Source: an uncultured Trueperaceae bacterium (GTDB lineage: Bacteria > Deinococcota > Deinococci > Deinococcales > Trueperaceae). From it: a stretch of 64,000 bases of DNA. Location: the NCBI GenBank assembly GCA_963727505.1, contig CAVSGP010000004.1, positions 704,001-768,000 on the forward strand, given 5' to 3'. A model generated the notes under the pieces. That model saw nothing but the letters and a program-made list of their open reading frames with translations. It did no database searches and had not been told where the DNA came from. Shown one piece after another: positions 3,154-54,067 of this stretch. The translations under genes and the position numbers were made by a program. Each line of letters starts with the position of its first letter. The stretch's first letter is position 1.

Positions 3154-4380
3154 TCAGTCTTCCCCGAGCAGCGCCGCCTTGAACGCCGCGAAGCGATCCT
3201 CGGCCAGACTGTCGCGGATGTCCTCCATGAGGCGCGCCATGAAGCGCAGATTGTGCACGGTCACGAGCTGCTGCGCGAGCCGCTCGTTGGCCTTGAACAG
3301 GTGACGCACGTAGCTGCGGCTGTAGCTCCGGCAGGCCGCACAGTCGCATCCTTCCTCTAGCGGCCGCAGATCCTCGGCGAATCGCGCGTTGCGCAGGTTG
3401 AGACGGAAGGTGGCGAGGCGCTCGCCGTCGTCGCCCCGACGTACGAAGGCCGCGCCGTTGCGGGCGTTGCGGGTCGGCGCCACGCAGTCGAAGGTGTCCA
3501 CACCGCGCTCGACGGCCTCGAGGATGCTGGGCACGTCCCCGATGCCGAGCAGATGCCGCGGCTTCGCTTCCGGCAGCTCGGGAACCGTCCAGTCGAGCAC
3601 CGCGTACATGTCCTGCAGCGTGCTGCCGAGGTTCCCGCCGATGGCCATGCCATCGAACGGCATGGCCCCGATGGTGGCAGCACTCTCCTGGCGCAGGTCG
3701 CGGAACGCGCCCCCCTGCACCACTCCGAACAGCGCCTGCGGGTAGCCGTGCCTCGGCGTGGAGCGCTCGAAGGCGCGCAGGCTGCGCTCGGCCCAGCGGT
3801 GCGTGCGCTCCATCGAACGGCGGGTGTACTCCTCATCGTGCAACGGGCTGGTGCACTCGTCGAAGGCGAGCACCATGTCGGCGCCGAGGGCGCGCTGCAC
3901 CTCGATGGACACCTCGGGCGAGAAGTCATGGAGGCTGCCGTCGATGTGGCTCTTGAAGCGCACCCCCTCCTCGCGGATGCGCACCATCGAGCTGCCCCGT
4001 GGCAGGCGTGGCGGCGCCTCGCCGGGGAAGATCGAGGCCACCTTGCCGACCCCGTGCTCGATGGAGGCACCCAGGGAGAACACCTGGAAGCCGCCCGAGT
4101 CCGTCAGGATCGGGCCGTGCCAGTTCATGAAGCGGTGGAGGCCGCCGTGCCGCTCGACGATCTCCGCGCCCGGGCGCAGGTAGAGGTGGTAGGTGTTGGC
4201 GAACAGGAGCTGGGTCCCGGCCGCGGCTACCGCGTCCGGCGCCACGCCCTTGACCGCCGCCTGCGTTCCCACCACGACGAACGCCGGTGTGCGTACCGCG
4301 CCGTGCGCCGTCTCCAGGGTCCCGAGCCGCGCCGCGCCGCGGCGCTCGTGCAGGGTGAAGGTGGGGGCATTCGGGTCCAT
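3154..4380 (-). CDS. tgt: tRNA-guanine transglycosylase
   Basis: NTYHL, TDSGGFQVFSL, QGG, PRHLLGIG, FDCVAPTRNAR and CxCxxC...HN zinc site. Confidence 0.95.
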   Translation of the reverse strand: MDPNAPTFTLHERRGAARLGTLETAHGAVRTPAFVVVGTQAAVKGVAPDAVAAAGTQLLFANTYHLYLRPGAEIVERHGGLHRFMNWHGPILTDSGGFQVFSLGASIEHGVGKVASIFPGEAPPRLPRGSSMVRIREEGVRFKSHIDGSLHDFSPEVSIEVQRALGADMVLAFDECTSPLHDEEYTRRSMERTHRWAERSLRAFERSTPRHGYPQALFGVVQGGAFRDLRQESAATIGAMPFDGMAIGGNLGSTLQDMYAVLDWTVPELPEAKPRHLLGIGDVPSILEAVERGVDTFDCVAPTRNARNGAAFVRRGDDGERLATFRLNLRNARFAEDLRPLEEGCDCAACRSYSRSYVRHLFKANERLAQQLVTVHNLRFMARLMEDIRDSLAEDRFAAFKAALLGED

Positions 4381-4525
4381 GGTGGCGGCCCGCCATTGTA
4401 CCCGCCGGCCGTTGGCGGCGCCGTCCTGTAGCGCGACCCTTGGTGTCCACGCACGGCTCGGCTCACAGCGCGACAACGGAGGGCCCACTTTGCCCGATTT
4501 CACGTCTGCTTAGCACGGCACGCCC

Positions 4526-4554
4526 TATGATGCACGCATCGGGCATTGCCCGAT
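4526..4554 (+). promoter_or_regulatory. Putative -10 box (TATGAT) and 5' hairpin of the riboswitch leader
   Basis: TATGAT at 4526-4531, then hairpin atcgggc-att-gcccgat; the same arrangement occurs at 6051-6079. Confidence 0.5.
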
Positions 4555-4630
4555 CTTGGAACGCGATGAAACCCGTCTCCTAACGTGGGCGCTTGAGACG
4601 GGTGGAGCGAGTAGCGCAACCGGCCAAGGT
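4553..4630 (+). ncRNA. c-di-GMP-II riboswitch aptamer 1
   Basis: GGAA..GCgAUGAA, stem acccgtctc/gagacgggt, loop UGGGCGCUU, GGAGC.AGUAGCGCAACCG; closing helix cttgg/ccaag; pseudoknot GCGCU/AGCGC. Confidence 0.85.
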
Positions 4631-4737
4631 GAGTCAATCCTCATCCTCAGCCGAACACGCGTCCACAACGGCTCCGCAAGGGGTCGTCGAGGGAGTATCC
4701 GGTCGTGCCACGAGTTCATGCTCGCGCACGCAAGCCG

Positions 4738-4822
4738 GGACCCCCCGGAAGCGATGAAGCCTGTCCTGCACTTGGGCGCTTGGGACAGGTGGAGCCAGTA
4801 GCGCAACCGGCCAGGCGGGTCC
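4738..4822 (+). ncRNA. c-di-GMP-II riboswitch aptamer 2 (tandem with aptamer 1)
   Basis: GGAAGCGAUGAA, stem gcctgtcc/ggacaggt, UGGGCGCUU, GGAGCCAGUAGCGCAACCGGCC; closing helix ggaccc/gggtcc. Confidence 0.85.
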
Positions 4823-4891
4823 TTTGTGGTCCAACGCAGCACCGTCGGTCAGGCGCCCCGAATCGTTCGAGAGGCTTCGAGGCGAGGACCG

Positions 4892-5908
4892 ATGGTGGCC
4901 GACAGCGCGTCAGGCAAGAGCACCGCAGTCCTGCACAGGGTTCGCCGCAGGCGGATCGCCGGCTGGCTTCGCATCGTCTACCTGGCCCTGGCGGCGGCCG
5001 TCGTCCTGTCGGAAGCGGGCTGTTCGTCCGTTGGGACGGAGGTCCCGGCGAGCCTCACGAGCGCATCTGACGTTCCGCAGCCGATGTTCGGGGCCTACAC
5101 GGACGGCGGCGTCTGGCAGGGCATGGAGCCTGTCCGGCAACTCGAAACGTTGCTCGGACGCAAGCTCGATATCGTGCACTGGTTCATGAGTTGGGACACG
5201 CCCTACGACATCGCCCTCGTCGAAGCGGCCAGCGCCGACGGCCGACGTCCTCTCATCACCTGGGAGCCGAACCACCAGGCGGTCCAGGCCATCGCCGCGG
5301 GCACGTACGACGGGCTCATCCGAGATTTCGCAGACGGCGTGCGTGCCACGCCCGGGATCGTGTACGTTCGTCCGTTCCCCGAGATGAATGGGGATTGGGT
5401 GCCTTGGAACGGAGACCCCGCCGCCCTGGTGGCGGCCTGGCGCCACATGGTGACCGTGTTCCGGGCCGAGGGAGCGGACAACGTGCGGTGGGTCTGGAGC
5501 CCCAACGTGACGGACCAGCCCAACACACCTGCCAACGCCATGGAGCGCTACTACCCTGGCAGCTCTTACGTCGATGTGTTGGCACTGGACGGTTACAACT
5601 GGGGTACGACAACGAGCTGGAGCACGTGGCAGAGCTATACAGAGATCTTCGCGCAACCGTACGCGCGCATCACCGCACTGGGGCCGCAACCGGTGTGGAT
5701 CACGGAGATCGCCTCCGCCAGCCAGGGCGGAGACAAGGCCGCGTGGGTCGCGAACATGCTCAATACGTCGGCCTTCCCCCGCATTCAGGCCCTGGTCTGG
5801 TTCAACCAGAACAAGGAAGCGGATTGGCGGATCGACAACTCGGCCAACGTCATCCAGGCGGCTCGCGTCAATCTTGGCCCCGGAACCGCCACCCTTGCGA
5901 GCCGATGA
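4892..5908 (+). CDS. GH26 glycoside hydrolase, probable lipoprotein
   Basis: ITWEP, RPFPEMNGDW (acid/base Glu), YYPG..YVDVLALDGYNWG, PVWITE (nucleophile); hydrophobic segment then AGC. Confidence 0.88.
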   Translation: MVADSASGKSTAVLHRVRRRRIAGWLRIVYLALAAAVVLSEAGCSSVGTEVPASLTSASDVPQPMFGAYTDGGVWQGMEPVRQLETLLGRKLDIVHWFMSWDTPYDIALVEAASADGRRPLITWEPNHQAVQAIAAGTYDGLIRDFADGVRATPGIVYVRPFPEMNGDWVPWNGDPAALVAAWRHMVTVFRAEGADNVRWVWSPNVTDQPNTPANAMERYYPGSSYVDVLALDGYNWGTTTSWSTWQSYTEIFAQPYARITALGPQPVWITEIASASQGGDKAAWVANMLNTSAFPRIQALVWFNQNKEADWRIDNSANVIQAARVNLGPGTATLASR

Positions 5909-6078
5909 GCCACGAGGCATGCTGACGTCGTCGAGCCAGGGCATCCTGTCAGAGAAGGTACCGGCTCCGCCCTTCCCCCGGGGACGCTGGATGAAGTCCG
6001 GATGAACCTCGCCGTTGGGAGATCTGTCACAATCTCACCGGGCACCGTCGTAGGATTCATGAGTCGGGCAAGGCCCGA

Positions 6079-6152
6079 CCTTGGAAGCGATGAAGCCCGT
6101 TTCCCAACGTGGGCGCTCGAGACGGGCGGAGCGAGCAGCGCAACCGTCCAGG
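6079..6152 (+). ncRNA. c-di-GMP-II riboswitch aptamer 3
   Basis: GGAAGCGAUGAA, stem gcccgtttc/gagacgggc, UGGGCGCUC, GGAGCGAGCAGCGCAACCG; closing helix cttgg/ccagg. Confidence 0.83.
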
Positions 6153-6208
6153 CAGATTCGTAGCTGCCCATCGTCGGTCAGGCGCACCTAGTTCTTCGCG
6201 AGGCGACG

Positions 6209-7207
6209 ATGGCGATGGTGTCTCAGTCGAACGAGAGTGGTGAACGGCGTAGCCGCGCGAGCGGCCGGCGCTTCACGACGGCGATCGCGATCACGATCGC
6301 CGTGCTCGTGCTGGCAACCGGGTGTTCGAGCGTGGCCAGCCGACCGCCCCGAACCGTCGCCCGCCCATCGGATGTCCGGCCGATGTTCGGCGCCTTCACC
6401 TACGGTGGCGTGTGGCAGGGGATGGAGCCCGTTCGCCAGCTCGAAGATCTGCTCGGACGCAAGCTCGACGTGGTCCACTGGTACATGAGCTGGGACACGC
6501 CCTACGACGTCGCTCTCGTGAAGGCGGCCATCGCCGGCGGGCGCCTGCCCATGATCACCTGGCAACCCCACCACCAGACCGTCTCCGACATCGCTTCCGG
6601 AACCTACGACGGCACCCTCCGCAGTTTCGCCGACGGCGTGCGGGCCACGCCCGGCCTCGTCTACGTGCGCCCCTTCCCCGAGATGAACGGTGACTGGGAA
6701 CCCTGGAACGGACAGCCGGCTACCTTCGTGAGGGCGTGGCGCCACATGGTCGACGTCTTCCGAGCCGAAGGCGCCGACAACGTGCGGTGGGTCTGGTCGC
6801 CCAACGACACCGACCAGCCAAGTACCCCTGCCAACGCCATGGAGCGGTACTACCCCGGTAACGCCTACGTCGACATCCTTGCTCTGGACGGCTACAACTG
6901 GGGAACGAGCCGGAGCTGGAGCACATGGCGCAGCTTCAGCGACATCTTCGCCCAGCCCTACGCCCGCATCACCGCCCTCGGACCTCAGCCCGTGTGGATC
7001 GCCGAGGTCGCCTCGACCAGCAAGGGTGGCGACAAGGCCGCCTGGGTCGCCGGCATGCTCGACACCAAGCAGTTCCCCCGTATCCGAGCGCTGATCTGGT
7101 TCAACCACAACAACGACATGGACTGGCGCCTGGACAATTCGCTCGCCGTGGTCCAGTCCGCACGGGCGAACCTTGCGCCCAACCTCGACGCGGCCGCCAG
7201 CCGCTAA
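6209..7207 (+). CDS. GH26 glycoside hydrolase lipoprotein (paralog of 4892-5908)
   Basis: LATGC lipobox-like motif; RPFPEMNGDW, DGYNWG, PVWIAE; highly similar to the upstream paralog. Confidence 0.88.
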   Translation: MAMVSQSNESGERRSRASGRRFTTAIAITIAVLVLATGCSSVASRPPRTVARPSDVRPMFGAFTYGGVWQGMEPVRQLEDLLGRKLDVVHWYMSWDTPYDVALVKAAIAGGRLPMITWQPHHQTVSDIASGTYDGTLRSFADGVRATPGLVYVRPFPEMNGDWEPWNGQPATFVRAWRHMVDVFRAEGADNVRWVWSPNDTDQPSTPANAMERYYPGNAYVDILALDGYNWGTSRSWSTWRSFSDIFAQPYARITALGPQPVWIAEVASTSKGGDKAAWVAGMLDTKQFPRIRALIWFNHNNDMDWRLDNSLAVVQSARANLAPNLDAAASR

Positions 7208-7381: not shown

Positions 7382-10144
7382 TCAGCGCGCGCTGGCGCGC
7401 GCGCTCGACGCCACGGAGGCGCGCGAGCCCGAGAAGAGCCGTTGCAGCACCGCGCTGTACATCCCTGCGTCCTCGATCCCGTAGGAGGCCACGATCGCCT
7501 GGCTCCGCTGGTAGGCGGTGGCCAGGCCGAGCTTCCCGGCGGCGACGTCCGCGCTCTCCGCCACGAGCTGTCGTTCGGGTGCCGCCAGTGACGTCGGATC
7601 TACCCGATAGGCAGCGTACGCGCTGCCCAGGGCGTCGACGAGCGGCCCGAGGCGCAGCATGGCCTCGACCGGTCCCTGCAGGTTCCCCACGATCTGGTCC
7701 TTCCGGGTTACGCCGTGCACCGGGTTGATGTACAGGGCGTAGGCGAAGGCGTCGTCCTTGGCGGCCGGCTGCGCCAGCGCCCACGCCAGCTTCGCCGCAC
7801 CGGCGCAGACCGAGAAGTCGGGATCGAAGACGTTGAACGACCCGCTCAGGAGGTGCGGGTTGTACAGAGGCTTGTTCACGTCCTCGGAGACTGCACGCAG
7901 CAGCGTCAGCGCATCGGACGTCATCTGCGAGAGCCCCTTGTCGCCGGTCTGGCCGACGGCAAGCGGATTGAGATAGGACTCGTTGATGAGCACTTGAAGC
8001 AGAAGCCGCGCTGGCACCCCGTAAGCGGTGGACGCCTCTTCGATGTAGGGTTCGATCGGAGCCAGCCGACCCAGCATGAGCAGCTCGAAGTGGTTCAGGG
8101 GCCGGTAACCCTCGGCCGACCCGGGCAGGGTCTGCGGGGCCTCGCTGGGCTGTCGCAGATAGGCGGGCCGGCAGTAGTCCGAGAGTGCTGGCCGAGGTTC
8201 GTAAGACGGGGTAGCGGCGGCCGCCCCGTCGGCTCCCCCGCCGCCACCGCCGGCGGCGATCCGGGCGAAGGCCGCGGGCGCGGCCAGGGCGACCGCTCCC
8301 GTCACGGTAGCGTGAGCACGTGGAGCCTCCAGCCGGCGCGCGGAGCGCGACACGGGATCGAGCGGTAGCGCGATGGAAGCCTGGAACACGGGGATCGTCG
8401 CGCTCCCGGCCGGTTCCAGCAACAGCGCAGGGGCGACCTGCGCCGCATGCAAGGGCAACCACTCGTGCTGTGCCATGTCGAGGCGCGGCGTGTGCTCCAG
8501 CAGTCGCTGGGTGGCAAGCGGATCCGCTCCCGAGGCCGGCGCCAGCGCCAGGATGGCCACGAACACCGCCGTCAGGGACGTCAGCATGGTGGCGGCCGTA
8601 CCCAGCGTTCGTTTGTCGACGCCGCGCGCGGTGGGCCGCTCCCAGGCCACACCCTGGGTCCCCTTGACCGCCCTGCGGCTCGCTGCGCGACGCTCCCGGA
8701 AGAACGCGGGGACCACGCTGGAGGCCGCGGCGACGAAGCTGACGGGATTCGCCACCTTCAGAAGCATGTAGGGCAACCAGGTCTGGAGCGTCCTCCGGCC
8801 CGCGAACCGCAGGGCCGGAGCTCGCGCCCGGCGACCGTCGCGCGCCTGAGCGTAGAAGCCGGCGAAGGTCATGAGTCCCGTCGCGGCCAGGTCGATTCCG
8901 ACCCACAGAGCCAGGTTCCGCGCCAACGCGCTCGACCCCATCGCCCCCAACACGCCCAGCGCCAGCATCACCGGCACCAGAAGCAACAGCAGCAGCCCGA
9001 GAAGGTTCTCGAGCTGCGCCCCGAAGAGCGTGAAGCGCACGTTGGGAGTCATGGCGCGGTCGCCGGCCTCGCCCAGGACCCGCTTCAACGCGTTCTGGAT
9101 ACCGCCGCCGTGCCAGCGCTCGATCTGCCGCAGGTAGCCGCCGGCGTGGGCGGGATCCTCCGTGTACATCTGCGCGTCCCCCACGAAACGTGCGTTCCCT
9201 CCGCGACGGAGCTCGATCACGTCCTCGCGGTCGAAGGCCTGGTCGAAGGGGACCTCCTCCCCCTCCACGACGATCCTGAAGCCGCGCGCAGCGAGCGCGG
9301 CCGGCGACCAGCGCTCGACGGTGCGGGGCAACGCCTGCACGGCGAGGGTCAGGTCGTGATCCTCGGTGAGTGTGTCGGGCGACATCGGCAGCACGTCCCG
9401 GCGCACCGTGAAGCCGCACCCGACCACCGTGAACAGGCGGCTGGCCCCCCACAGGTCGCCGTCGCCCGGCGTGCGGACCTGCCCCCGCCGCAGCACCGAA
9501 GCGAAGGCGTACTCGGCCGAGCGGCCGGCCGCGATGAAGCGCTGCGCCCGCTGAGCCCCGGCGGGCACGAAGGACGTCACCGAACCGGACTGGAGGGCAT
9601 AGTCCTCCAGCACCGGCCTGCCGCTGTGCCAACGCAGCCGGTAGAAGTTCCGCCGCAGCGCGGCGATGAAGCCGCGGTCGAACACGGTGTCGCCGTCCAC
9701 CAGGAGCACGCGCTCGGCGGTCAACAGCGAGCTCGTCACCAGGTTGTTGACGGCCTCGGACTTGGCCGTGCGCTGCCGATAATCCAGCACCACCACGGCC
9801 ATCGCTTTCCCGGGATGGCGCCAGCGCTCGACGGTGGCAAGCAGCTGCGGCGCTGGTGCCCTGGCCAGACGCTCGAAGCCGAACTCCTCCAGGGTCGCCG
9901 TCACCACCGCGTGGGTACCGTCGCTCGAGCCGTTGACGCTGACCGCCAGCTCGTCCGGGAGGGAACTCTGCGTCAACAATGAGGCCAGCGCCCGTCGCGC
10001 TCCGGCCTCCTCGTTGTACATGGGTGAGACGACGGCCAGCCTGTCGGGCCCGCAGACGGGCAGACTGCGATCAGGGACCGTGCTGAGCGCCGCGTTGAGA
10101 AGGGTTGTGGGCATGGCGGACAGGCCGAAGAAGTTGGGCATCAC
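7382..10144 (-). CDS. Processive GT2 glycosyltransferase fused to a C-terminal lytic transglycosylase (SLT) domain
   Basis: PMYNEE, SSDGT, KSEAVN, DGD, TED and QIERW motifs, then TM helices; C-terminal EEASTAYGVP..LINES...GLSQM SLT motif. Confidence 0.85.
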   Translation of the reverse strand: MMPNFFGLSAMPTTLLNAALSTVPDRSLPVCGPDRLAVVSPMYNEEAGARRALASLLTQSSLPDELAVSVNGSSDGTHAVVTATLEEFGFERLARAPAPQLLATVERWRHPGKAMAVVVLDYRQRTAKSEAVNNLVTSSLLTAERVLLVDGDTVFDRGFIAALRRNFYRLRWHSGRPVLEDYALQSGSVTSFVPAGAQRAQRFIAAGRSAEYAFASVLRRGQVRTPGDGDLWGASRLFTVVGCGFTVRRDVLPMSPDTLTEDHDLTLAVQALPRTVERWSPAALAARGFRIVVEGEEVPFDQAFDREDVIELRRGGNARFVGDAQMYTEDPAHAGGYLRQIERWHGGGIQNALKRVLGEAGDRAMTPNVRFTLFGAQLENLLGLLLLLLVPVMLALGVLGAMGSSALARNLALWVGIDLAATGLMTFAGFYAQARDGRRARAPALRFAGRRTLQTWLPYMLLKVANPVSFVAAASSVVPAFFRERRAASRRAVKGTQGVAWERPTARGVDKRTLGTAATMLTSLTAVFVAILALAPASGADPLATQRLLEHTPRLDMAQHEWLPLHAAQVAPALLLEPAGSATIPVFQASIALPLDPVSRSARRLEAPRAHATVTGAVALAAPAAFARIAAGGGGGGADGAAAATPSYEPRPALSDYCRPAYLRQPSEAPQTLPGSAEGYRPLNHFELLMLGRLAPIEPYIEEASTAYGVPARLLLQVLINESYLNPLAVGQTGDKGLSQMTSDALTLLRAVSEDVNKPLYNPHLLSGSFNVFDPDFSVCAGAAKLAWALAQPAAKDDAFAYALYINPVHGVTRKDQIVGNLQGPVEAMLRLGPLVDALGSAYAAYRVDPTSLAAPERQLVAESADVAAGKLGLATAYQRSQAIVASYGIEDAGMYSAVLQRLFSGSRASVASSARASAR

Positions 10145-22490: not shown

Positions 22491-25400
22491 TCACCCGCAC
22501 TTGGAGTAGCCGCAACTCTCGCACTTCTGGCAGCCCTCCTCGAAGCGCAGCGGGGCGCCGCAGTCGGGGCAGGCCTTGCCGCGATTGAGGACGTTCTCGG
22601 CACCCGCCGTCTCCAGCGCGACGGCCAGCAGGTCGGCCTTCGACGCCACGAGGCGACCATGGTAGCTGCCGTACATGCCGCCGTTGATGCCGCGCAGCGT
22701 CTTGATGAGGGCCTCGGCGGGCACGCCGTATTGCAGTGCGATCGACACCACCCGTCCCAGCGCCTCGCTGTCCGCGTTGGCTTCGTCCCCGGCCTTGCCC
22801 GAGACGATGAAGACCTCGGTGGCGAGCCCGTCCTGCTTGTTGACGGTCACGAAGAACCCCCGCTTCTCGCCGTTGGGGAGCATCAGCTTCACGGCATCGG
22901 TGAAACCGGGGAGTCGCAGCGGTCGCTCGAACAGCGGTTCGCTCGGTAGCCGGTCGACGCGCGGGTCGGCCGACGCGCTCGCGCCGTGCGCGACGCCGGC
23001 CGTGCCGGGAACGGTCGAGGCGACCGTCGCTGCGGACAGCGTGCCGCCCGTCGCGGACCCGTCGTCTTCCTTCTTGACGGCCTGGGTGGAGAGCACCTGG
23101 AACTCGCGCGAGCCGTCCCGATAGACGGTGATGCCCTTGCAGCCGGTCTCGAAGGCCAGCCCGTAGGCGTCGAAGACGTCCTGCGCGGACGCGTGCTTGG
23201 GCAGGTTGATGGTCTTGCTGATGGAGTTGGCGACCTGCTTGCCACCGTCGAACGCCTGCTGTACGACCCCCTGCATCCGCACGTGATCGGCCGGCGCGAT
23301 GTCGTGCGCACACATCAGGACGGTCTTGACGGCATCGGGGACGAAGTCGAGCCCCTGCACGCTGCCGTGGTTGGCCTGCACGGCCTCGACCACCTTGTCC
23401 CAGTCCCAGCCGCCTTCGCCGGCGTAGTCGGGGTGCGCGGCGTGCTCCTCCATCAACTCCCGGAACAGCGGATGGACCAGCGCGGCGTAGTCGCTTCCGA
23501 TCTTGCGATAGATGAACGGCGCGAACACCGGCTCCACGCCCGAGGACACCCCCATCAACATGCTGGTGGTCCCGGTGGGTGCGACGGTCAGCACGGCGAT
23601 GTTGCGGCGGGGTGTGTCCAGCCCGCTCTCGGGGAACAGCGGGAAGGGAGCGCGCTCCTCGGCCAGACCTTCACTGGCCTCGGTGGCCGCCTCACGCAAC
23701 TCGGTGATCATGGCGTGCACGGCGTCGCGCCCCTCGTCCGTGTTGTAGGCGTAGCCCATGCGGATGAGCGCGTCGGCCAGCCCCATCACGCCGAGTCCCA
23801 GGCGGCGCAGCTTCATGCTCATGGCGCGGTTGTCCTCGAGGGCGAAGCGGTTCACCTCGAGAACGTTGTCCAGGAAGCGCACGCAGGTGCCCACGTCCGC
23901 GCGGAAAGCTCGGCGGTCGAAGCCGTCCATCCCGCGTCCGGACTCGCGCACGTAGGCGGCGAGGTTCATCGCGCCCAGGTCGCAGGGCTCGCCGGGGTAC
24001 AGCGGGATCTCCCCGCAGTTGTGCGCCCGAAGCCCGTTGGCATCGAACTCGTGGACGTGCTCGACGATCACGTCGTACACCTGCTCCTCGCCGTCAGCCT
24101 CGATCGCGACGACCTCGTCGACGAAGCGTTCGCGGTTGAGGCGCCGCCGGTAGCCGGCGAGCAGGCTGTCGAGCCGCTCCTGCTTGGCGCCATCCGAGAA
24201 GCCCGCCCGGCTCGCGAAGACCTCGAGGTTGCTGCCGCTCACGACGAGCTCGTGCTGGGCCGTGGTGCGGTAGGCGCGCCGGCCGCCGCGACCGTCGGGC
24301 AGCACGCTCGTGCCCTCCGGACGGCGTTCCGTGTAGATGGTCGACACTACGCCCAGCCGGGCCAGCATGCGCTGCACACGCCGGAGCGTATCGAGGTTCG
24401 ATTGCGCCAGACGCACGCTCACCCCTTTGCGCTGGCTGCCCTGCACCGACCCATCGGCGTCGAACAGGCCCCGAAGAACGCCGATCGTGAAGGCGCTGCT
24501 CGCGCCCTCCACGGCGTCCGTGATGCCCTTGGCCCCACGGGCCAGCCCGAAGCGCCGAGCGAGCTGCCCCAGCGTCCGGGAGGCGACGCGGGCCCGGCCC
24601 TCCCCGGTCGTGACCCAGACCTTGGCGAGCGGATGGCCGATGCCGCGGAGCAGGCCGGCGGCTGCCTCCGCGCGCTCGCCGGCGTCCTCGCCCCAGAAGT
24701 CGAGCGCCGCCATGCCCTCCTTGTCGGTCAGGAAGGTACCGTCCCCCACGAGCATGCCCAGTGCCCACCCCTCGGCTTCAGTGCCGGGGCCGGACCACGG
24801 CGCTGCCGAACGCTGGTCGGCGAGAGCGATGCGGTCCCCCACCGCCAGCGATCCGGCCTCCTCCCACGTGCTCTCCAACGCATAACGCGTGAGCCGCGTG
24901 ATCTTGCGCAGGGGATGGTCGGCGGTGAGCCGCAGCTGGAAGCCTCTGCGGGTGCGCACCCGCAGGATTGGCTTGACCCCCGTCGGGAAGAAGCCGCTGG
25001 ACTCCAGGCCGTAGCGCTCGCCATCGACGACAGCACAGAAGTCGCGCCCCACTAGATCGCCCACGCGGCGCGCGCCCATGTGCGTGGTCACCCAGGTGTC
25101 GGCCGTGACGCAGGGGTTGGTGGCCTTGATGTCACCCATCGCCTCGCGCATCGGATTGAACTCGTTGATGCGGTCCACGTAGATCAGCCCGGGCTCACCG
25201 GTCTGCCAGGCGTGCCGCGCGATGTCCTCGAGGACGTCGCCGCCCTCGCGCGCGATGCTCTGCCGCATGAAGGCGTCACTCACGAGCACCGAAATGTTGA
25301 AGGTGCTGATATCCCCCTCGGCCTGCTCGCGCTCCAGGTCCTTGGCGGTGATGAAGTCGCGCACGTCGGGGTGCGTGATGGAGATGGTGGCCATGCCGGC

Positions 25401-26279
25401 ACCGCGGCGCGTGCCGCCCTGCCGGATCACGCGCAGCGTGGGCGCGAAGACGTAGCGCAGGGTCGCCACCGGCCCCGCGAAGTCGGCGCCGCCGAGACCC
25501 GCCCAGATGGCGAAGTTGTCGAACACCTCGACCGCGAAGCTGGAGGGGCCGCTGGAGCTTCCGCCCGAGCCCTGCACCGGCGTGCCCTCGGGACGCAACG
25601 CACTCAGGTCGAGCACGACGTCGTCGCCGCGAAGCAACGCGGCGATCATGGCGGTGCCTCCCTGCCAGATGCTCTCCACCGAGTCGCCGACGGTCTCGAG
25701 CTGGCCGCCCGAGGGGGCGTCCTGGCGCTCCACGAAGGTGGCGGCCCGGTACCCGCGCGTGACGTACTCGCCGCGCACCAGATCGAAGAAGGTGCCGCTA
25801 CGGACCTTCTCGTAGTCGTCGTGCGCAGGATCGATGGTGAGGAAGAGCCGCCCGCAGCGACCCGTGAAGGCACGCTTGGGCCGGATCGGGTCGAGGTTCA
25901 GGCCGTTGCCGCCGCCCACCTTGGTGACCAGCGCGAGCTTGGTCGCGAGCCGCATGACCCAGGGGGTGGTCGCAGGGCGCTCGGGGCTGCCGTCCTGCAC
26001 GAAGCAGTTCAGAACGTTGCCGTGACCGGTGGCAGCGCCGGCGAGCACGCGCCCGCCCGGACAGAAGCGCTTGCTCGCCATCAGGTCGTAGAAGCGCTCG
26101 GACATGTCCGCCCGCACGTTCTCGCCCTCGGGGCTGGCCACCCAGCTCGCGACGCGCGCGAACATGTCCTCCAGCGTCCCGTCGCCCGGCTGGAAGTACT
26201 GCCGCTTGGCGATCGCCCGCGCATGATCGTCGAAGCCCGCGAGGGTGCCTGCTTCGTGGGGCGTACGTGCTCTGGCCAC
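22491..26279 (-). CDS. nrdJ: Adenosylcobalamin-dependent (class II) ribonucleotide reductase containing an intein
   Basis: NCFV, QGGTRRGAGM, TNP[intein]CGEIPL, RRLGLGVMG, APTGT, SISKTIN, KGITVYRDGSR; C-terminal Zn ribbon. Confidence 0.95.
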   Translation of the reverse strand: MARARTPHEAGTLAGFDDHARAIAKRQYFQPGDGTLEDMFARVASWVASPEGENVRADMSERFYDLMASKRFCPGGRVLAGAATGHGNVLNCFVQDGSPERPATTPWVMRLATKLALVTKVGGGNGLNLDPIRPKRAFTGRCGRLFLTIDPAHDDYEKVRSGTFFDLVRGEYVTRGYRAATFVERQDAPSGGQLETVGDSVESIWQGGTAMIAALLRGDDVVLDLSALRPEGTPVQGSGGSSSGPSSFAVEVFDNFAIWAGLGGADFAGPVATLRYVFAPTLRVIRQGGTRRGAGMATISITHPDVRDFITAKDLEREQAEGDISTFNISVLVSDAFMRQSIAREGGDVLEDIARHAWQTGEPGLIYVDRINEFNPMREAMGDIKATNPCVTADTWVTTHMGARRVGDLVGRDFCAVVDGERYGLESSGFFPTGVKPILRVRTRRGFQLRLTADHPLRKITRLTRYALESTWEEAGSLAVGDRIALADQRSAAPWSGPGTEAEGWALGMLVGDGTFLTDKEGMAALDFWGEDAGERAEAAAGLLRGIGHPLAKVWVTTGEGRARVASRTLGQLARRFGLARGAKGITDAVEGASSAFTIGVLRGLFDADGSVQGSQRKGVSVRLAQSNLDTLRRVQRMLARLGVVSTIYTERRPEGTSVLPDGRGGRRAYRTTAQHELVVSGSNLEVFASRAGFSDGAKQERLDSLLAGYRRRLNRERFVDEVVAIEADGEEQVYDVIVEHVHEFDANGLRAHNCGEIPLYPGEPCDLGAMNLAAYVRESGRGMDGFDRRAFRADVGTCVRFLDNVLEVNRFALEDNRAMSMKLRRLGLGVMGLADALIRMGYAYNTDEGRDAVHAMITELREAATEASEGLAEERAPFPLFPESGLDTPRRNIAVLTVAPTGTTSMLMGVSSGVEPVFAPFIYRKIGSDYAALVHPLFRELMEEHAAHPDYAGEGGWDWDKVVEAVQANHGSVQGLDFVPDAVKTVLMCAHDIAPADHVRMQGVVQQAFDGGKQVANSISKTINLPKHASAQDVFDAYGLAFETGCKGITVYRDGSREFQVLSTQAVKKEDDGSATGGTLSAATVASTVPGTAGVAHGASASADPRVDRLPSEPLFERPLRLPGFTDAVKLMLPNGEKRGFFVTVNKQDGLATEVFIVSGKAGDEANADSEALGRVVSIALQYGVPAEALIKTLRGINGGMYGSYHGRLVASKADLLAVALETAGAENVLNRGKACPDCGAPLRFEEGCQKCESCGYSKCG
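24018..25112 (-). mobile_element. 365-aa intein with LAGLIDADG homing endonuclease
   Basis: Starts CVTADT, block B TADHP, LGMLVGDG and LRGLFDADG motifs, ends VYD...HEFDANGLRAHN/C. Confidence 0.95.
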
Positions 26280-52146: not shown

Positions 52147-52785
52147 CTAGAATCCCTCGGCCGCCTCGGCCAGGCCCTCATCGTCGAGCAGCACGATGCT
52201 GCGGTAGCCGGAACGGATGAGGCCTTCGCTGCGGAGCTCGGTGATGATCTTGGACACGCTCTCGCGGGTGCTGGCGGTGCCCTCCGCAACGAGCTCGTGG
52301 GTGGCGGCCACCACCACACGCCCCTCCTCGTCGGACCGGGCCAGCGGCGTCTGCGACAACACCAGGAGGTAGCGGGCAACGCGGGCGCGCAGGTCGCCCG
52401 TCTGCAGGTGGTACTCGTAGTCCATCAGGCGACGCATCTGGTCGGACAGGGAGCGCGTGATGTGCATCAGGTGCCCCGCCTCGATGCGGTCCGGATCGAT
52501 GGCATCGATGCTCGCCAGGGTGAGCGCTTCGGCGATCTCGCCGCGCTCGCCGGCCATCAGGGCGTCCTCGCCGAAGAAGTCGCCGGGCATGACGTGACGG
52601 ACGGTCAGGGTGCGGCCCTCCGGCGTCATCCGGGTGATGCGGATGAGGCCGTCGCGGACCCGGTAGACCGAGCGGGCCGGGTCGCCGCTGAGGTAGAGCG
52701 TCTGGCGACGCTGGTAGTTGAGGGTCTGGCTGGGGGCGTCGAACGCCGTCTGCTCAGGGGTAGAGGAGTTCCGTCGAACGTGCAT
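52147..52785 (-). CDS. CRP/FNR-family regulator (LdrP-like)
   Basis: YRVRDGLIRI, PGDFFGE, THE..AEGTASTRESVSK HTH; directly downstream of carH. Confidence 0.85.
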   Translation of the reverse strand: MHVRRNSSTPEQTAFDAPSQTLNYQRRQTLYLSGDPARSVYRVRDGLIRITRMTPEGRTLTVRHVMPGDFFGEDALMAGERGEIAEALTLASIDAIDPDRIEAGHLMHITRSLSDQMRRLMDYEYHLQTGDLRARVARYLLVLSQTPLARSDEEGRVVVAATHELVAEGTASTRESVSKIITELRSEGLIRSGYRSIVLLDDEGLAEAAEGF

Positions 52786-52931
52786 GTGCACCTCCGTGCG
52801 CTCTCCCAACCGTCGGGAGGCTAGATGCGGGTGGTGGCGCCGCCCCTAGGGGGTCGGCGGGGGACCGAGCACGAGGGTCTCGGGGTCGCGCTGGCAGGCG
52901 CGGCGCACGTCGGGGCCCGGCCGAGGCCCGT

Positions 52932-53840
52932 TCATGCGCCGGCCGCTCCGTTACGGCCCAAGATCTCGTCGAAACGCTTCACGGCTTCGCCGACATCGTC
53001 GGCGAGGTACACGCCTCCCAGGCGCTCGGCCCGGGAGGGGTCGTGATCGAAGGCGGCGCCACCGTAGACCACCAGCGGCGCGAGCTGCCTCAACAGCTCG
53101 ACGTGCTGCTCGAGCGCGTCCAGCGCTTCGGCCGCTGAGGCCGACAGCATCACGGCGGAGGCACCGAGGTGCCGCGCCATGGCGTTCAAGTCCGACACCG
53201 GCGTGTCGGCGCCGACGTAGTAGACGGCATGCCCGGCGCGCCTCAGCAATACGGCGAGCATGAGGGCGCCGAGTTCGTGATGGTCGCCGGGCGCGCACGC
53301 CACGATGACCGCGGGACCGTGCACGTGGCTGGCAGCCAGGCTCATCAGGTGCCGCAGCCAACCCTGCACGAAGCTCGAGCTGAAGTGCTCGGTGGTGGTG
53401 TCGATGCGGCCGTCATGCCACAGATCGCCGATGTCGACCATGGCCCCCGCGATGACGTCGGGCACCACCGTCTCGACCGGGTGGAGGGCGTGCGCTTCGC
53501 CGAGCACGTGTTCGGCACGGTCCTCGTCGAGGGCCAGGAAGGCTTCGACGAGGCGGCGGCGCAGGACGTCGGTGGGCAGGGGGCTCGCGTCGGCGGGACC
53601 CGTGCGTGCCACCAACTCGGCAGCGCGGGAAGCCGGCACGCCGTCGGCGATGTGATGCTTCATCGCCTCGATGGCGCGGAGGTCTTCGTCGGAGTACAGG
53701 CGATAGCCCGCCTCGGAGCGCTCCGGATGCGGCACGCCGTAGCGCCGCTCCCACTGCCGAAGCGTTCCCGCGGCGACGGCCGTGCGCTCAACGACTTCGT
53801 TGACGGTGTACTTTCCGATGTTGGTCGCGATGTTGGTCAT
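52932..53840 (-). CDS. carH: B12-dependent photoreceptor / MerR regulator CarH (LitR)
   Basis: LRQWERRYG..P.R..GYRLYS HTH; W-x9-EH motif; PGDHHELG cobalamin-binding motif. Confidence 0.88.
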   Translation of the reverse strand: MTNIATNIGKYTVNEVVERTAVAAGTLRQWERRYGVPHPERSEAGYRLYSDEDLRAIEAMKHHIADGVPASRAAELVARTGPADASPLPTDVLRRRLVEAFLALDEDRAEHVLGEAHALHPVETVVPDVIAGAMVDIGDLWHDGRIDTTTEHFSSSFVQGWLRHLMSLAASHVHGPAVIVACAPGDHHELGALMLAVLLRRAGHAVYYVGADTPVSDLNAMARHLGASAVMLSASAAEALDALEQHVELLRQLAPLVVYGGAAFDHDPSRAERLGGVYLADDVGEAVKRFDEILGRNGAAGA

Positions 53841-53857
53841 GTGGGCTCCGAGGCGAG

Positions 53858-53914
53858 TGTACAACCCCTGTCTAACGTTAGACGAATGGTAGTACATACC
53901 TTGAACGCTGTCAA
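53858..53914 (-). promoter_or_regulatory. carH promoter with putative CarH operator repeats
   Basis: TTGACA-N17-TACCAT; TGTACT, TAGACA and TGTACA in 11-bp register; 14-bp palindrome GTCTAACGTTAGAC. Confidence 0.65.
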
Positions 53915-54067
53915 GCCTCTCCGTGATCGCACCTCCTGAAGAGACACGCTTCCAGGGCTCCCATGGGGCCCTTCTTGATGTTGAAGGTCTGTACATCCAT
54001 TCGCCCGGCCCGGCTCCGCCCGGCGCCCTGCCGGGCCGCCGGGCGCTCGTGCGGTAGCATGCCTGCC

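Follow-up and report, generated by a model that had tools for sequence, protein, structure and literature searches.

Riboswitches that respond to cyclic di-GMP (c-di-GMP) are known to occur in tandem, and the locus described here, in a 64-kb stretch of DNA from an uncultured Trueperaceae bacterium (contig CAVSGP010000004.1, positions 704,001 to 768,000; hereafter the window), is best compared with these systems. In the window, two c-di-GMP-II aptamers precede a single gene for a glycoside hydrolase of family GH26 (paralog A), and one further aptamer (copy 3) precedes a second GH26 gene (paralog B). One catalogue, as far as its accessible text goes, lists 59 doublets and nine triplets of c-di-GMP-II aptamers, defines a tandem by at least two aptamers of the same class in one 5' untranslated region (UTR), classes such tandems as 'pseudo-cooperative' systems with multiple expression platforms, and places most cases before a surface-anchor gene (COG4932) in Paraclostridium and its relatives (Sherlock et al., 2022, RNA Biol, PMC9481103). 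The window resembles these tandems in that two RF01786 (c-di-GMP-II) aptamers share one 5' UTR and the same, here predicted, ligand. However, it differs from the cases described there in having a GH26 gene downstream, a high-GC Deinococcota host, no terminators, a platform that consists of a hairpin at the ribosome site, and two aptamer subtypes in a fixed order. Here unit 2 has a ribosome-site hairpin that contains a conserved element (B), and unit 1 has a hairpin that competes with the aptamer stem P1, as in 30 of 30 doublets, with neither a terminator nor a ribosome site.

Closer to the host, contiguous c-di-GMP riboswitches have been reported as enriched in Deinococcota, in a survey that included Truepera radiovictrix and whose Table S18 gives two genes of COG4124 (beta-mannanase, equivalent to GH26) under contiguous riboswitches (Microb Genom 2025, PMC12452182). 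What that table provides is a bulk count, to which the analysis of the window adds a locus, aptamer subtypes and a platform. Bacillus thuringiensis Bc3-5 carries a triple-tandem c-di-GMP-I riboswitch (PMC4759541), for which a more digital response is described, with terminators as the output of such systems (PMC9481103). Like the window, Bc3-5 places more than one complete c-di-GMP riboswitch within a single 5' UTR, but its aptamers are of class I, with an unrelated fold, its platforms are terminators and its host is a low-GC Firmicute. Our literature searches returned no paper joining Truepera, riboswitch and c-di-GMP, and among those on c-di-GMP-II and Deinococcus none on this locus, as judged by title and abstract. 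The 59 doublets of the catalogue (PMC9481103) may already include cases from Trueperaceae.

As tandem c-di-GMP-II switches have already been catalogued, the doublet in the window is a further case of a known arrangement, and it leaves our knowledge of the riboswitch class and of tandem architectures unchanged. Three features may be new: the fixed order of type 1 and type 2 aptamers, a platform without terminators whose B element is complementary to two partners, and a freshly collapsed chimeric aptamer. Furthermore, 30 doublets and 33 single aptamers before orthologous genes, a fresh collapse from doublet to singlet and a high-GC platform without terminators together offer material for dose-response tests. 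The locus would tie c-di-GMP, at the level of RNA, to a secreted, lichenase-like GH26 enzyme in the Trueperaceae, which are hardy and little studied, and the position of GH26 beside a gene for a GT2-SLT fusion protein across this family suggests a glycan under c-di-GMP control, perhaps a beta-glucan, that these bacteria both make and trim.

In OFF riboswitches of the thiM type, an anti-Shine-Dalgarno strand pairs either with the aptamer (no ligand, ON) or with the Shine-Dalgarno (SD) sequence (ligand bound, OFF). The explanation that we prefer for the window, with a probability of roughly 0.55, is that tandem c-di-GMP-II units on one transcript form a translational OFF switch of this kind. The likeness to the thiM type is one of logic only, which we infer here; the aptamer class and the ligand both differ.

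Aptamers 1 and 2 and their relatives in Trueperaceae

Rfam covariance models, run at their gathering thresholds over the window, gave six matches: three tRNAs and three riboswitch aptamers. Aptamer 1, designated type 1 (4550-4633, plus strand), matched RF01786 with 64.1 bits (E 5e-12), and aptamer 2, designated type 2 (4738-4821, plus strand), with 71.4 bits (E 5e-14), against a cut-off of 53.5 bits; each match spans model positions 1-84 of 84. They lie on the same strand with 104 nt between them, upstream of a single GH26 gene. An earlier reading of this DNA from its letters alone (the original prediction) had placed two complete aptamers before one GH26 gene and had named a covariance-model comparison as the check. 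This comparison bears the claim out for both copies, and the coordinates agree to within 3 nt. That aptamers 1 and 2 are of the c-di-GMP-II class is, on the strength of these sequence matches, nearly certain, and their ligand selectivity is predicted.

The same reading had held that structure rather than sequence is selected in these RNAs, and this too is upheld. The stems quoted for it (acccgtctc/gagacggg, gcctgtcc/ggacagg and gcccgtttc/gagacggg) were all found and correspond to P3, in which two positions alter on both sides among the three window copies (C-G/U-A/C-G and U-A/C-G/U-A), as expected of the compensatory changes that it had described. Its conserved motifs GGAA, AUGAA, UGGGCGCU and AG(U/C)AGCGCAACCG are all present as well, and the insertion that it saw in the first copy is one extra A between P1 and P2 (GGAACGC as against GGA-N-GC), where relatives vary likewise. 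In an alignment (A4) of 93 aptamers and three weak rows, with 92 distinct rows, 93.6% of the cells pair, compared with 80.1% in shuffles (0 of 500 as high) and 35-44% with the partners slid, and 13 of 17 pairs (8 of 9 in P3) change on both sides, although the alignment was fitted to our own covariance model, so that these counts lean towards structure.

In all three window copies, the P3 loop can form the pseudoknot with the 3' tail, GCGCU pairing to AGCGC. Across the family, 99.6% of its cells pair, but four of its five pairs are invariant and hence uninformative; a single sequence has a U-A to G-C swap. In the structure 3Q3Z, A69 is described as reading one guanine of the ligand, and G73 and the ribose of A70 as reading the other (PMC13715770, 2026). 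When aligned with the Rfam consensus, these three residues map to the tail CAACCG, which is intact in all three window copies. Its first A is A in 89 of 91 aptamers and G in two (L009:5591 and L016:4092), as counted with a pattern that fixed the other five positions; the two aptamers that this pattern left unmatched read CAACCG too. Across the family, the P3 loop (UGGGCGCU) and the tail show essentially no variation.

A profile of the GH26 protein led to 75 loci from species-representative genomes, nearly all of them metagenome-assembled genomes (MAGs) of Trueperaceae or other Deinococcota. Two of the loci, L011 and L022, bear the label T. radiovictrix. A covariance model built from the three window aptamers was then searched against the window and these loci (828,714 bases), giving 96 matches at E <= 1, of which 93 scored at least 44 bits; the remaining three, of at most 22 bits, were dropped. 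Each of the 93 aptamers lies on the strand of a GH26 gene and just upstream of it. When 12 loci were rechecked with Rfam, all 25 matches passed the RF01786 cut-off, with 61.5-81.2 bits. Mapped onto 104 GH26 gene rows from the family hidden Markov model, the aptamers define 63 riboswitch-bearing leaders, namely 30 doublets, including that of window paralog A, and 33 single-aptamer leaders, two of which have incomplete upstream sequence. The other 41 GH26 genes have no aptamer; most of them are either distant homologs or a distinct second paralog directly 3' of a gene under riboswitch control. In the closest relative, L001, an uncultured Trueperaceae MAG whose GH26 protein is 86% identical, doublets stand before both GH26 paralogs (4101-4370 and 5666-5940), so that four aptamers, all above the Rfam cut-off, lie within 1.9 kb.

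The doublets are uniform in their make-up. Spacers between the aptamers measure 84-122 nt in 28 of the 30 and 41 and 49 nt in the other two. A type 1 signature, in which the 3' arm of P3 begins with GCGCUUGAG or a close variant, marks all first-position aptamers except those of L007 and L016 (28 of 30), and a type 2 signature, in which this arm begins with GCGCUUGG, marks 30 of 30 second-position aptamers and 27 of the 33 single ones. At the level of sequence, then, the tandem arrangement before GH26 is a common trait of the family, with two subtypes in a fixed order. Because the subtypes have stayed distinct in species whose GH26 proteins share only about 50% identity, we argue that each of the two aptamers has a function and that the duplication is ancient.

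Transcript, expression platform and direction of switching

A tandem switch requires that both aptamers share a transcript. Upstream of aptamer 1 (4499-4531, plus strand), TTCACG (4499-4504) and TATGAT (4526-4531), separated by 21 nt, form a promoter-like motif, a motif match only, from which transcription would start near 4538. A hairpin of the form AUCGGGC-AUU-GCCCGAU (4538-4554, plus strand; -10.6 kcal/mol, z -3.04) begins there and abuts P1 of aptamer 1. Its counterpart before copy 3 (6063-6079) has the closing pair changed from A-U to G-C, and relatives have a hairpin at the same place. Within the family, 25-26 of 62 leaders carry the pattern T[TC]NAC-N17-23-TAnnnT ahead of their first aptamer, and none of the 30 spacers between aptamers carries it. 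From such indirect evidence of sequence patterns, it is very probable that one transcript carries both aptamers. A promoter in the spacer would instead place them on separate transcripts and leave no tandem switch. Deinococcota promoters are poorly defined, and a standard sigma-70 scan of 4350-6300 found no promoter, not even upstream of aptamer 1, which gives this alternative some room. However, we consider it highly improbable, since the window spacer is without any TAnnnT hexamer, the family motif is confined to the upstream regions, and aptamer 1 would then control nothing, yet it is conserved. A scan of the same interval for terminators gave no terminator-like site. As a separate observation, the TTCAC box stands 20-21 nt upstream of the TAnnnT hexamer (often TGnTAnnnT) in these 25-26 of 62 leaders; as a spacing of 17 nt would be usual, this box is possibly the site of a regulator rather than a -35 element.

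Downstream of aptamer 2, the leader is predicted to fold into a stable expression-platform hairpin (4840-4897, plus strand; -32.8 kcal/mol, z -3.23, 0 of 200 shuffles as good). Its 5' arm is the B element (about 4843-4859, CGUCGGUCAGGCGCCCC), and its 3' arm contains GAGG (4879-4882), GAGGA (4884-4888) and the AUG (4892-4894); positions 4840-4850 pair with 4887-4897, including the AUG at 4892, and 4854-4857 pair with 4881-4884, within GAGGCG. The B element is 15 nt long, has the consensus CCGG-N-C-R-R-GCGCC-Y, and is the sole conserved block between the last aptamer and the start codon. Its pattern follows the last aptamer in 45 of 63 leaders, compared with a mean of 3.8 (maximum 8) in shuffles and 7 of 63 coding controls. 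In the local minimum-energy fold, at least 2 nt of the SD sequence pair with B in 36 of 56 leaders, these being the leaders with automatically assigned start codons. From these modelled folds, control at translation initiation through the 4840-4897 hairpin is probable.

The B element is also complementary to the aptamer. Its 3' half (4849-4859 in the window) can form 9 bp with the P3 loop GGGCGCUUG, at -18.8 kcal/mol, and in most leaders the corresponding duplex has 9-10 bp and about -14 to -20 kcal/mol; its 5' half is complementary to the aptamer tail ACCGGC. Furthermore, B is conserved in sequence, whereas the upper stem of the hairpin drifts with the ribosome site, which suggests a second, invariant partner, for which the aptamer core is the candidate.

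These features can be combined into the OFF switch that we prefer. A transcript from near 4538 would present, in order, the type 1 aptamer, a hairpin (H1) that competes with its P1, the type 2 aptamer and then the main platform. Without c-di-GMP, the unlocked loop and tail would hold the nascent B element, leaving the ribosome site open. With c-di-GMP bound, the pseudoknot and P1 would lock, and the freed B would close the ribosome site, such that the lichenase-like lipoprotein would be made when c-di-GMP is low. With two aptamers in series that sense one ligand, the response would become steeper, in the pseudo-cooperative manner described for tandem riboswitches. We therefore lean, by a modest degree, towards c-di-GMP as an OFF rather than an ON signal.

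The same anatomy could, however, work with the opposite sign. The hairpin would then be OFF by default, c-di-GMP would open it, and GH26 would be made together with exopolysaccharide at high c-di-GMP. The hairpin is predicted with or without a forced aptamer, so that OFF looks like the ground state, and the conserved synteny with the GT2-SLT synthase-like gene fits co-expression with polymer synthesis. Hydrolases are encoded in many polysaccharide synthesis clusters, and several characterised c-di-GMP-II switches of Clostridioides are ON switches. Against this, we found nothing in the leader that is freed by ligand and complementary to B or to the anti-SD arm, and the aptamer regions to which B is complementary are exactly those that ligand binding would sequester. 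An ON switch is thus a possible but less probable reading than the thiM-like OFF switch.

Several results weigh against the OFF switch in its present form. On a stricter count, at least three SD nucleotides are paired in only 25 of the 56 leaders. When these leaders were folded free and with the aptamer forced, the mean probability that the ribosome-binding site is unpaired was 0.30 and 0.31, respectively (12 lower, 11 higher; Wilcoxon p 0.51), with programs for nested folding that cannot score the pseudoknotted pairing of B with the loop. The energy of the B:loop duplex is often unremarkable against shuffles in single leaders (in L002, 57 of 100 were as good). The hairpin of B with the ribosome site is also far more stable than any pairing of B with the aptamer, so an OFF switch needs kinetic, co-transcriptional control. 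Because the loop and tail are invariant, covariation says nothing either way about the pairing of B with the aptamer, and because GCGC and CCGG are palindromic, B cannot be assigned to the loop over the tail; GUGCCC variants of B still wobble-pair with loop or tail alike and hence do not discriminate between the two. The promoter-like motif has an unusual spacing of 20-21 nt and matches fewer than half of the leaders. Finally, for an output of unit 1, the window spacer offers no U-tract terminator, ribosome site or conserved start codon, and one concrete idea for such an output, that H1 frees a second anti-SD strand, failed.

The first unit and the spacer

Hairpin H1 (AGGUGAG/CUCAUCCU; 4627-4647, plus strand), taken like the other spacer hairpins from single-sequence folds, reuses the end of the P1 3' strand of aptamer 1 as its 5' arm and has a C/U-rich 3' arm. 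In 30 of 30 doublet leaders, the first predicted hairpin after aptamer 1 has its start inside the P1 3' strand, 2-5 nt from where that strand begins. From locus to locus the two arms of this hairpin change together, as judged by eye (GAUGAG/CUCAUC, UCGAG/CUCGA and GGAG/CUCC), and the 3' arm is rich in pyrimidines and conserved as CCCCUCAUCC or CCCCUCUUCC. Since H1 overlaps the P1 3' strand, closure of P1 on the ligand should melt H1, a behaviour characteristic of expression platforms. The remaining spacer (4659-4738, plus strand) holds a degenerate copy of B (AGCCG..GCGUCC) that closes a hairpin with an SD-like GAGGGAG (4659-4696), followed by a second hairpin at 4699-4738. The fold of 4625-4740 has -45.9 kcal/mol (z -2.63). 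A B-like pattern occurs in 10 of 30 spacers, compared with 2.9 in shuffles, and RNAalifold on the spacer alignment found almost no consensus (-1.2 kcal/mol).

Two candidate outputs of unit 1 were rejected. A leader peptide could begin at GUG 4705, which follows GAGGGAG, but this start is not kept in L001. As to the freed C/U strand of H1 as a second anti-SD sequence, over the 30 doublets it paired with its own ribosome-binding site at -9.74 kcal/mol, and with those of other loci at -9.56, whereas the shuffled strand gave -9.47, so that this idea finds no support.

Alternatively, unit 1 might act on transcription or on the fate of the RNA, with the melting of H1 exposing the C/U strand 4639-4650 to Rho or to an RNase. 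Riboswitch control of Rho-dependent termination is established. The competition between H1 and P1 in all 30 doublets, the conserved pyrimidine-rich 3' arm, the lack of an intrinsic terminator and a spacer with neither ribosome site nor conserved start codon are all in keeping with such a role, but the exposed run is short (~10-14 nt) and the remaining spacer is so strongly structured as to be unfavourable for Rho loading. We regard this role as a minor possibility. It is compatible with the thiM-like explanation of unit 2, in which case the doublet may combine two mechanisms. More generally, it is conceivable, though doubtful, that unit 1 represents a new kind of c-di-GMP-II expression platform, in which closure of P1 melts a hairpin and the output is through Rho or RNase, or through cross-talk with the identical loop and tail of aptamer 2. 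If so, unit 1 and a translational unit 2 would together form a digital switch that answers to a single ligand but controls an exopolysaccharide-processing enzyme through two mechanisms.

The opposite view is that aptamer 1 is a vestige of the duplication, that only aptamer 2 regulates, and that the doublet has no dose-response function. Indeed, no output of unit 1 could be recognised, its degenerate B-like element is matched in only 10 of 30 spacers, as against 45 of 63 leaders for the element of unit 2, and the doublet before paralog B was lost without apparent harm. However, in type 1 aptamers the invariant loop and tail are retained, as are compensatory changes in P1 and P3, type 1 identity is kept in 28 of 30 doublets although the GH26 proteins are only about 50% identical, and 12 of 12 rechecked type 1 aptamers pass the Rfam cut-off, with the one collapsed copy scoring worst. 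A vestigial aptamer 1 therefore seems very unlikely.

A further hairpin, GCCCGAACGGUUCGGGC (GCCCGA(A/G)NNGUUCGGGC), is conserved in sequence between the aptamers in 21 of 28 doublets, counted by eye, among them L008, L010, L014, L028 (about 5046-5062) and L033, and does not occur in the clade of the window. It is kept in sequence and not in pairing alone, which hints at a site for a protein or an RNase.

Copy 3 and the genes of the locus

The single aptamer before paralog B, copy 3 (6074-6157, plus strand), combines a type 1 5' part with a type 2 3' flank. The original prediction had counted it as a third c-di-GMP-II copy with AGC and CCGUCC variants; its sequence and both variants are as described, but its RF01786 score, 51.2 bits, falls short of the 53.5-bit cut-off. 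At gathering thresholds it appears as RF03169 (c-di-GMP-II-GAG), with 44.7 bits, because the RF03169 cut-off is only 40. Assignment to the GAG variant was rejected: the RF03169 consensus reads GAGACCG (GGCGAGACCG) where copy 3 reads GCAACCG (AGCGCAACCG), that is, CAA and not GAG, the match line is blank at the GAG positions, and RF01786 gives the higher score of the two models. Among the 28 aptamers scored with RF01786 (three in the window and 25 in 12 loci), copy 3 is the lowest and the other 27 pass.

Copy 3 is the sole single aptamer with a type 1 5' half. Compared with the second doublet of L001, its 5' 125 nt, through GCGCAACCG, are 86.4% identical to the aptamer 1 region and 63.8% to that of aptamer 2, and its 3' 75 nt are 69.0% identical to the sequence after aptamer 2 and 52.9% to that after aptamer 1; the alignment leaves a gap of about 190 nt in the copy 3 leader. 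The region upstream of copy 3 (6051-6079, plus strand), with a promoter-like -10 hexamer TAGGAT (6051-6056) and a 5' hairpin (6063-6079; -12.6 kcal/mol, z -3.43), aligns with the sequence upstream of aptamer 1. From these alignments, copy 3 looks like a doublet that collapsed by a deletion of ~190 nt between near-identical aptamer tails. In a neighbour-joining tree (Biopython, no support values; 98 of 104 rows, after removal of fragments that cover fewer than 250 profile positions), paralog B of the window has paralog B of L001 as its sister, and the other full-length leaders of the clade are all doublets. The nesting of paralog B in a doublet clade, together with the chimeric sequence, argues that the single state is a recent loss.

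It had been proposed that a double switch on one paralog and a single switch on the other give staged expression, with the variants of copy 3 tuning affinity or specificity. A tuned single switch with another threshold or ligand would accord with an intact CAACCG and with P2, P3 and a pseudoknot that can form. Moreover, when mapped by us, its G-to-U change falls on the non-canonical P1 pair at the floor of the binding pocket (PMC13715770), so that affinity could shift. However, the substitutions AGU to AGC and CCGG to CCGU are each found in 1 of 91 aptamers, P1 is short (five pairs), and the RF01786 score is the lowest recorded. The B element has been altered to GCGCACC, and the predicted platform, AUCGUCG/CGACGAU over AUG 6209 (6158-6222, plus strand; -21.4 kcal/mol, z 0.14), is no better than shuffles, 96 of 200 of which were as good. 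The chimeric origin and the tree also place the single state as a recent loss from doublets. The features cited for tuning are thus better explained as the product of recombination; tuned, staged expression is unlikely, decay is at least as likely as tuning, and decay or neutral loss would fit these sequences better than staged expression does.

Paralog A (4892-5908, plus strand; 338 amino acids) and paralog B (6209-7207, plus strand; 332 amino acids) match Pfam PF02156 with 38.4 and 43.1 bits, respectively, against a cut-off of 20.2, and are 68% identical (alignment A2). Both have lipoprotein-like N-termini, which in paralog A is a hydrophobic stretch followed by GCSS. NCBIfam has no family for either protein, nor for the neighbouring GT2-SLT protein. 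The best solved relative is CtLic26A (2bv9, 2bvd and 2v3g): the GH26 family profile matches chain 2bv9 of C. thermocellum endoglucanase H with E 4.7e-68 over profile positions 67-327 of 332, and mannanases with E 7e-12 or weaker. The GH26 module of endoglucanase H (CtLic26A) is a beta-1,3-1,4-glucanase (lichenase). Two glutamates, E158 (within PFPEMNG) and E266, occur in all 29 sequences of A2 and are candidates for the acid/base and nucleophile of clan GH-A. Unlike the CtLic26A module, the window proteins, known here from sequence, are single-domain and lipoprotein-like.

Convergent to the GH26 genes is the gene for a GT2-SLT fusion protein (7382-10144, minus strand; 920 amino acids; Pfam SLT, Glycos_transf_2 and Glyco_tranf_2_3) with a C-terminal SLT lytic transglycosylase domain. 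A protein with an SLT domain (about 735-944 amino acids) is convergent to GH26 in 10 of 10 related loci, and in 6 of 10 it has a GT2-family match at E <= 1e-5. The GT2-SLT protein is the likely maker of the glycan on which the GH26 enzymes act. These enzymes would trim or degrade a beta-glucan-type exopolysaccharide from this neighbour, with the substrate predicted, and c-di-GMP would set the amount of hydrolase. As an observation in its own right, the 920-residue protein is an unusual fusion of synthase and lysis functions.

The order of genes in related loci is tgt (minus strand), riboswitch or riboswitches, GH26, sometimes a second GH26, sometimes a dehydrogenase-like gene, and then the convergent SLT protein. 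In the window, tgt (queuine tRNA-ribosyltransferase; 3154-4503, minus strand; Pfam TGT, 456 bits) is divergent and lies outside the system; it is found upstream in 7 of the 9 related loci in which the upstream open reading frame was scanned. The longest tgt open reading frame starts at GTG 4503, which would lie within a few bases of the riboswitch promoter region, and an ATG near 4381 is probably the real start; with this start, chosen by eye, the divergent intergenic region measures about 510 nt. In view of the RNA evidence, a minus-strand open reading frame of 105 amino acids (4525-4842) that spans the whole leader was regarded as spurious, probably an artefact of high GC content. The dehydrogenase-like gene, encoding a glucose/sorbosone dehydrogenase-like (GSDH) beta-propeller, lies 3' of GH26 in 7 of 10 loci (for example, L010 8205-9488 and L053 7085-8263) and is absent from the window and from L001.

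Elsewhere in the window, 22491-26279 (minus strand) encodes a ribonucleotide reductase large subunit of 1262 amino acids that contains an intein with a LAGLIDADG homing-endonuclease domain (Pfam), and 52147-53996 (minus strand) encodes two adjacent regulators, one Crp-like (cyclic nucleotide-binding and helix-turn-helix domains) and one CarH-like (MerR and B12-binding domains).

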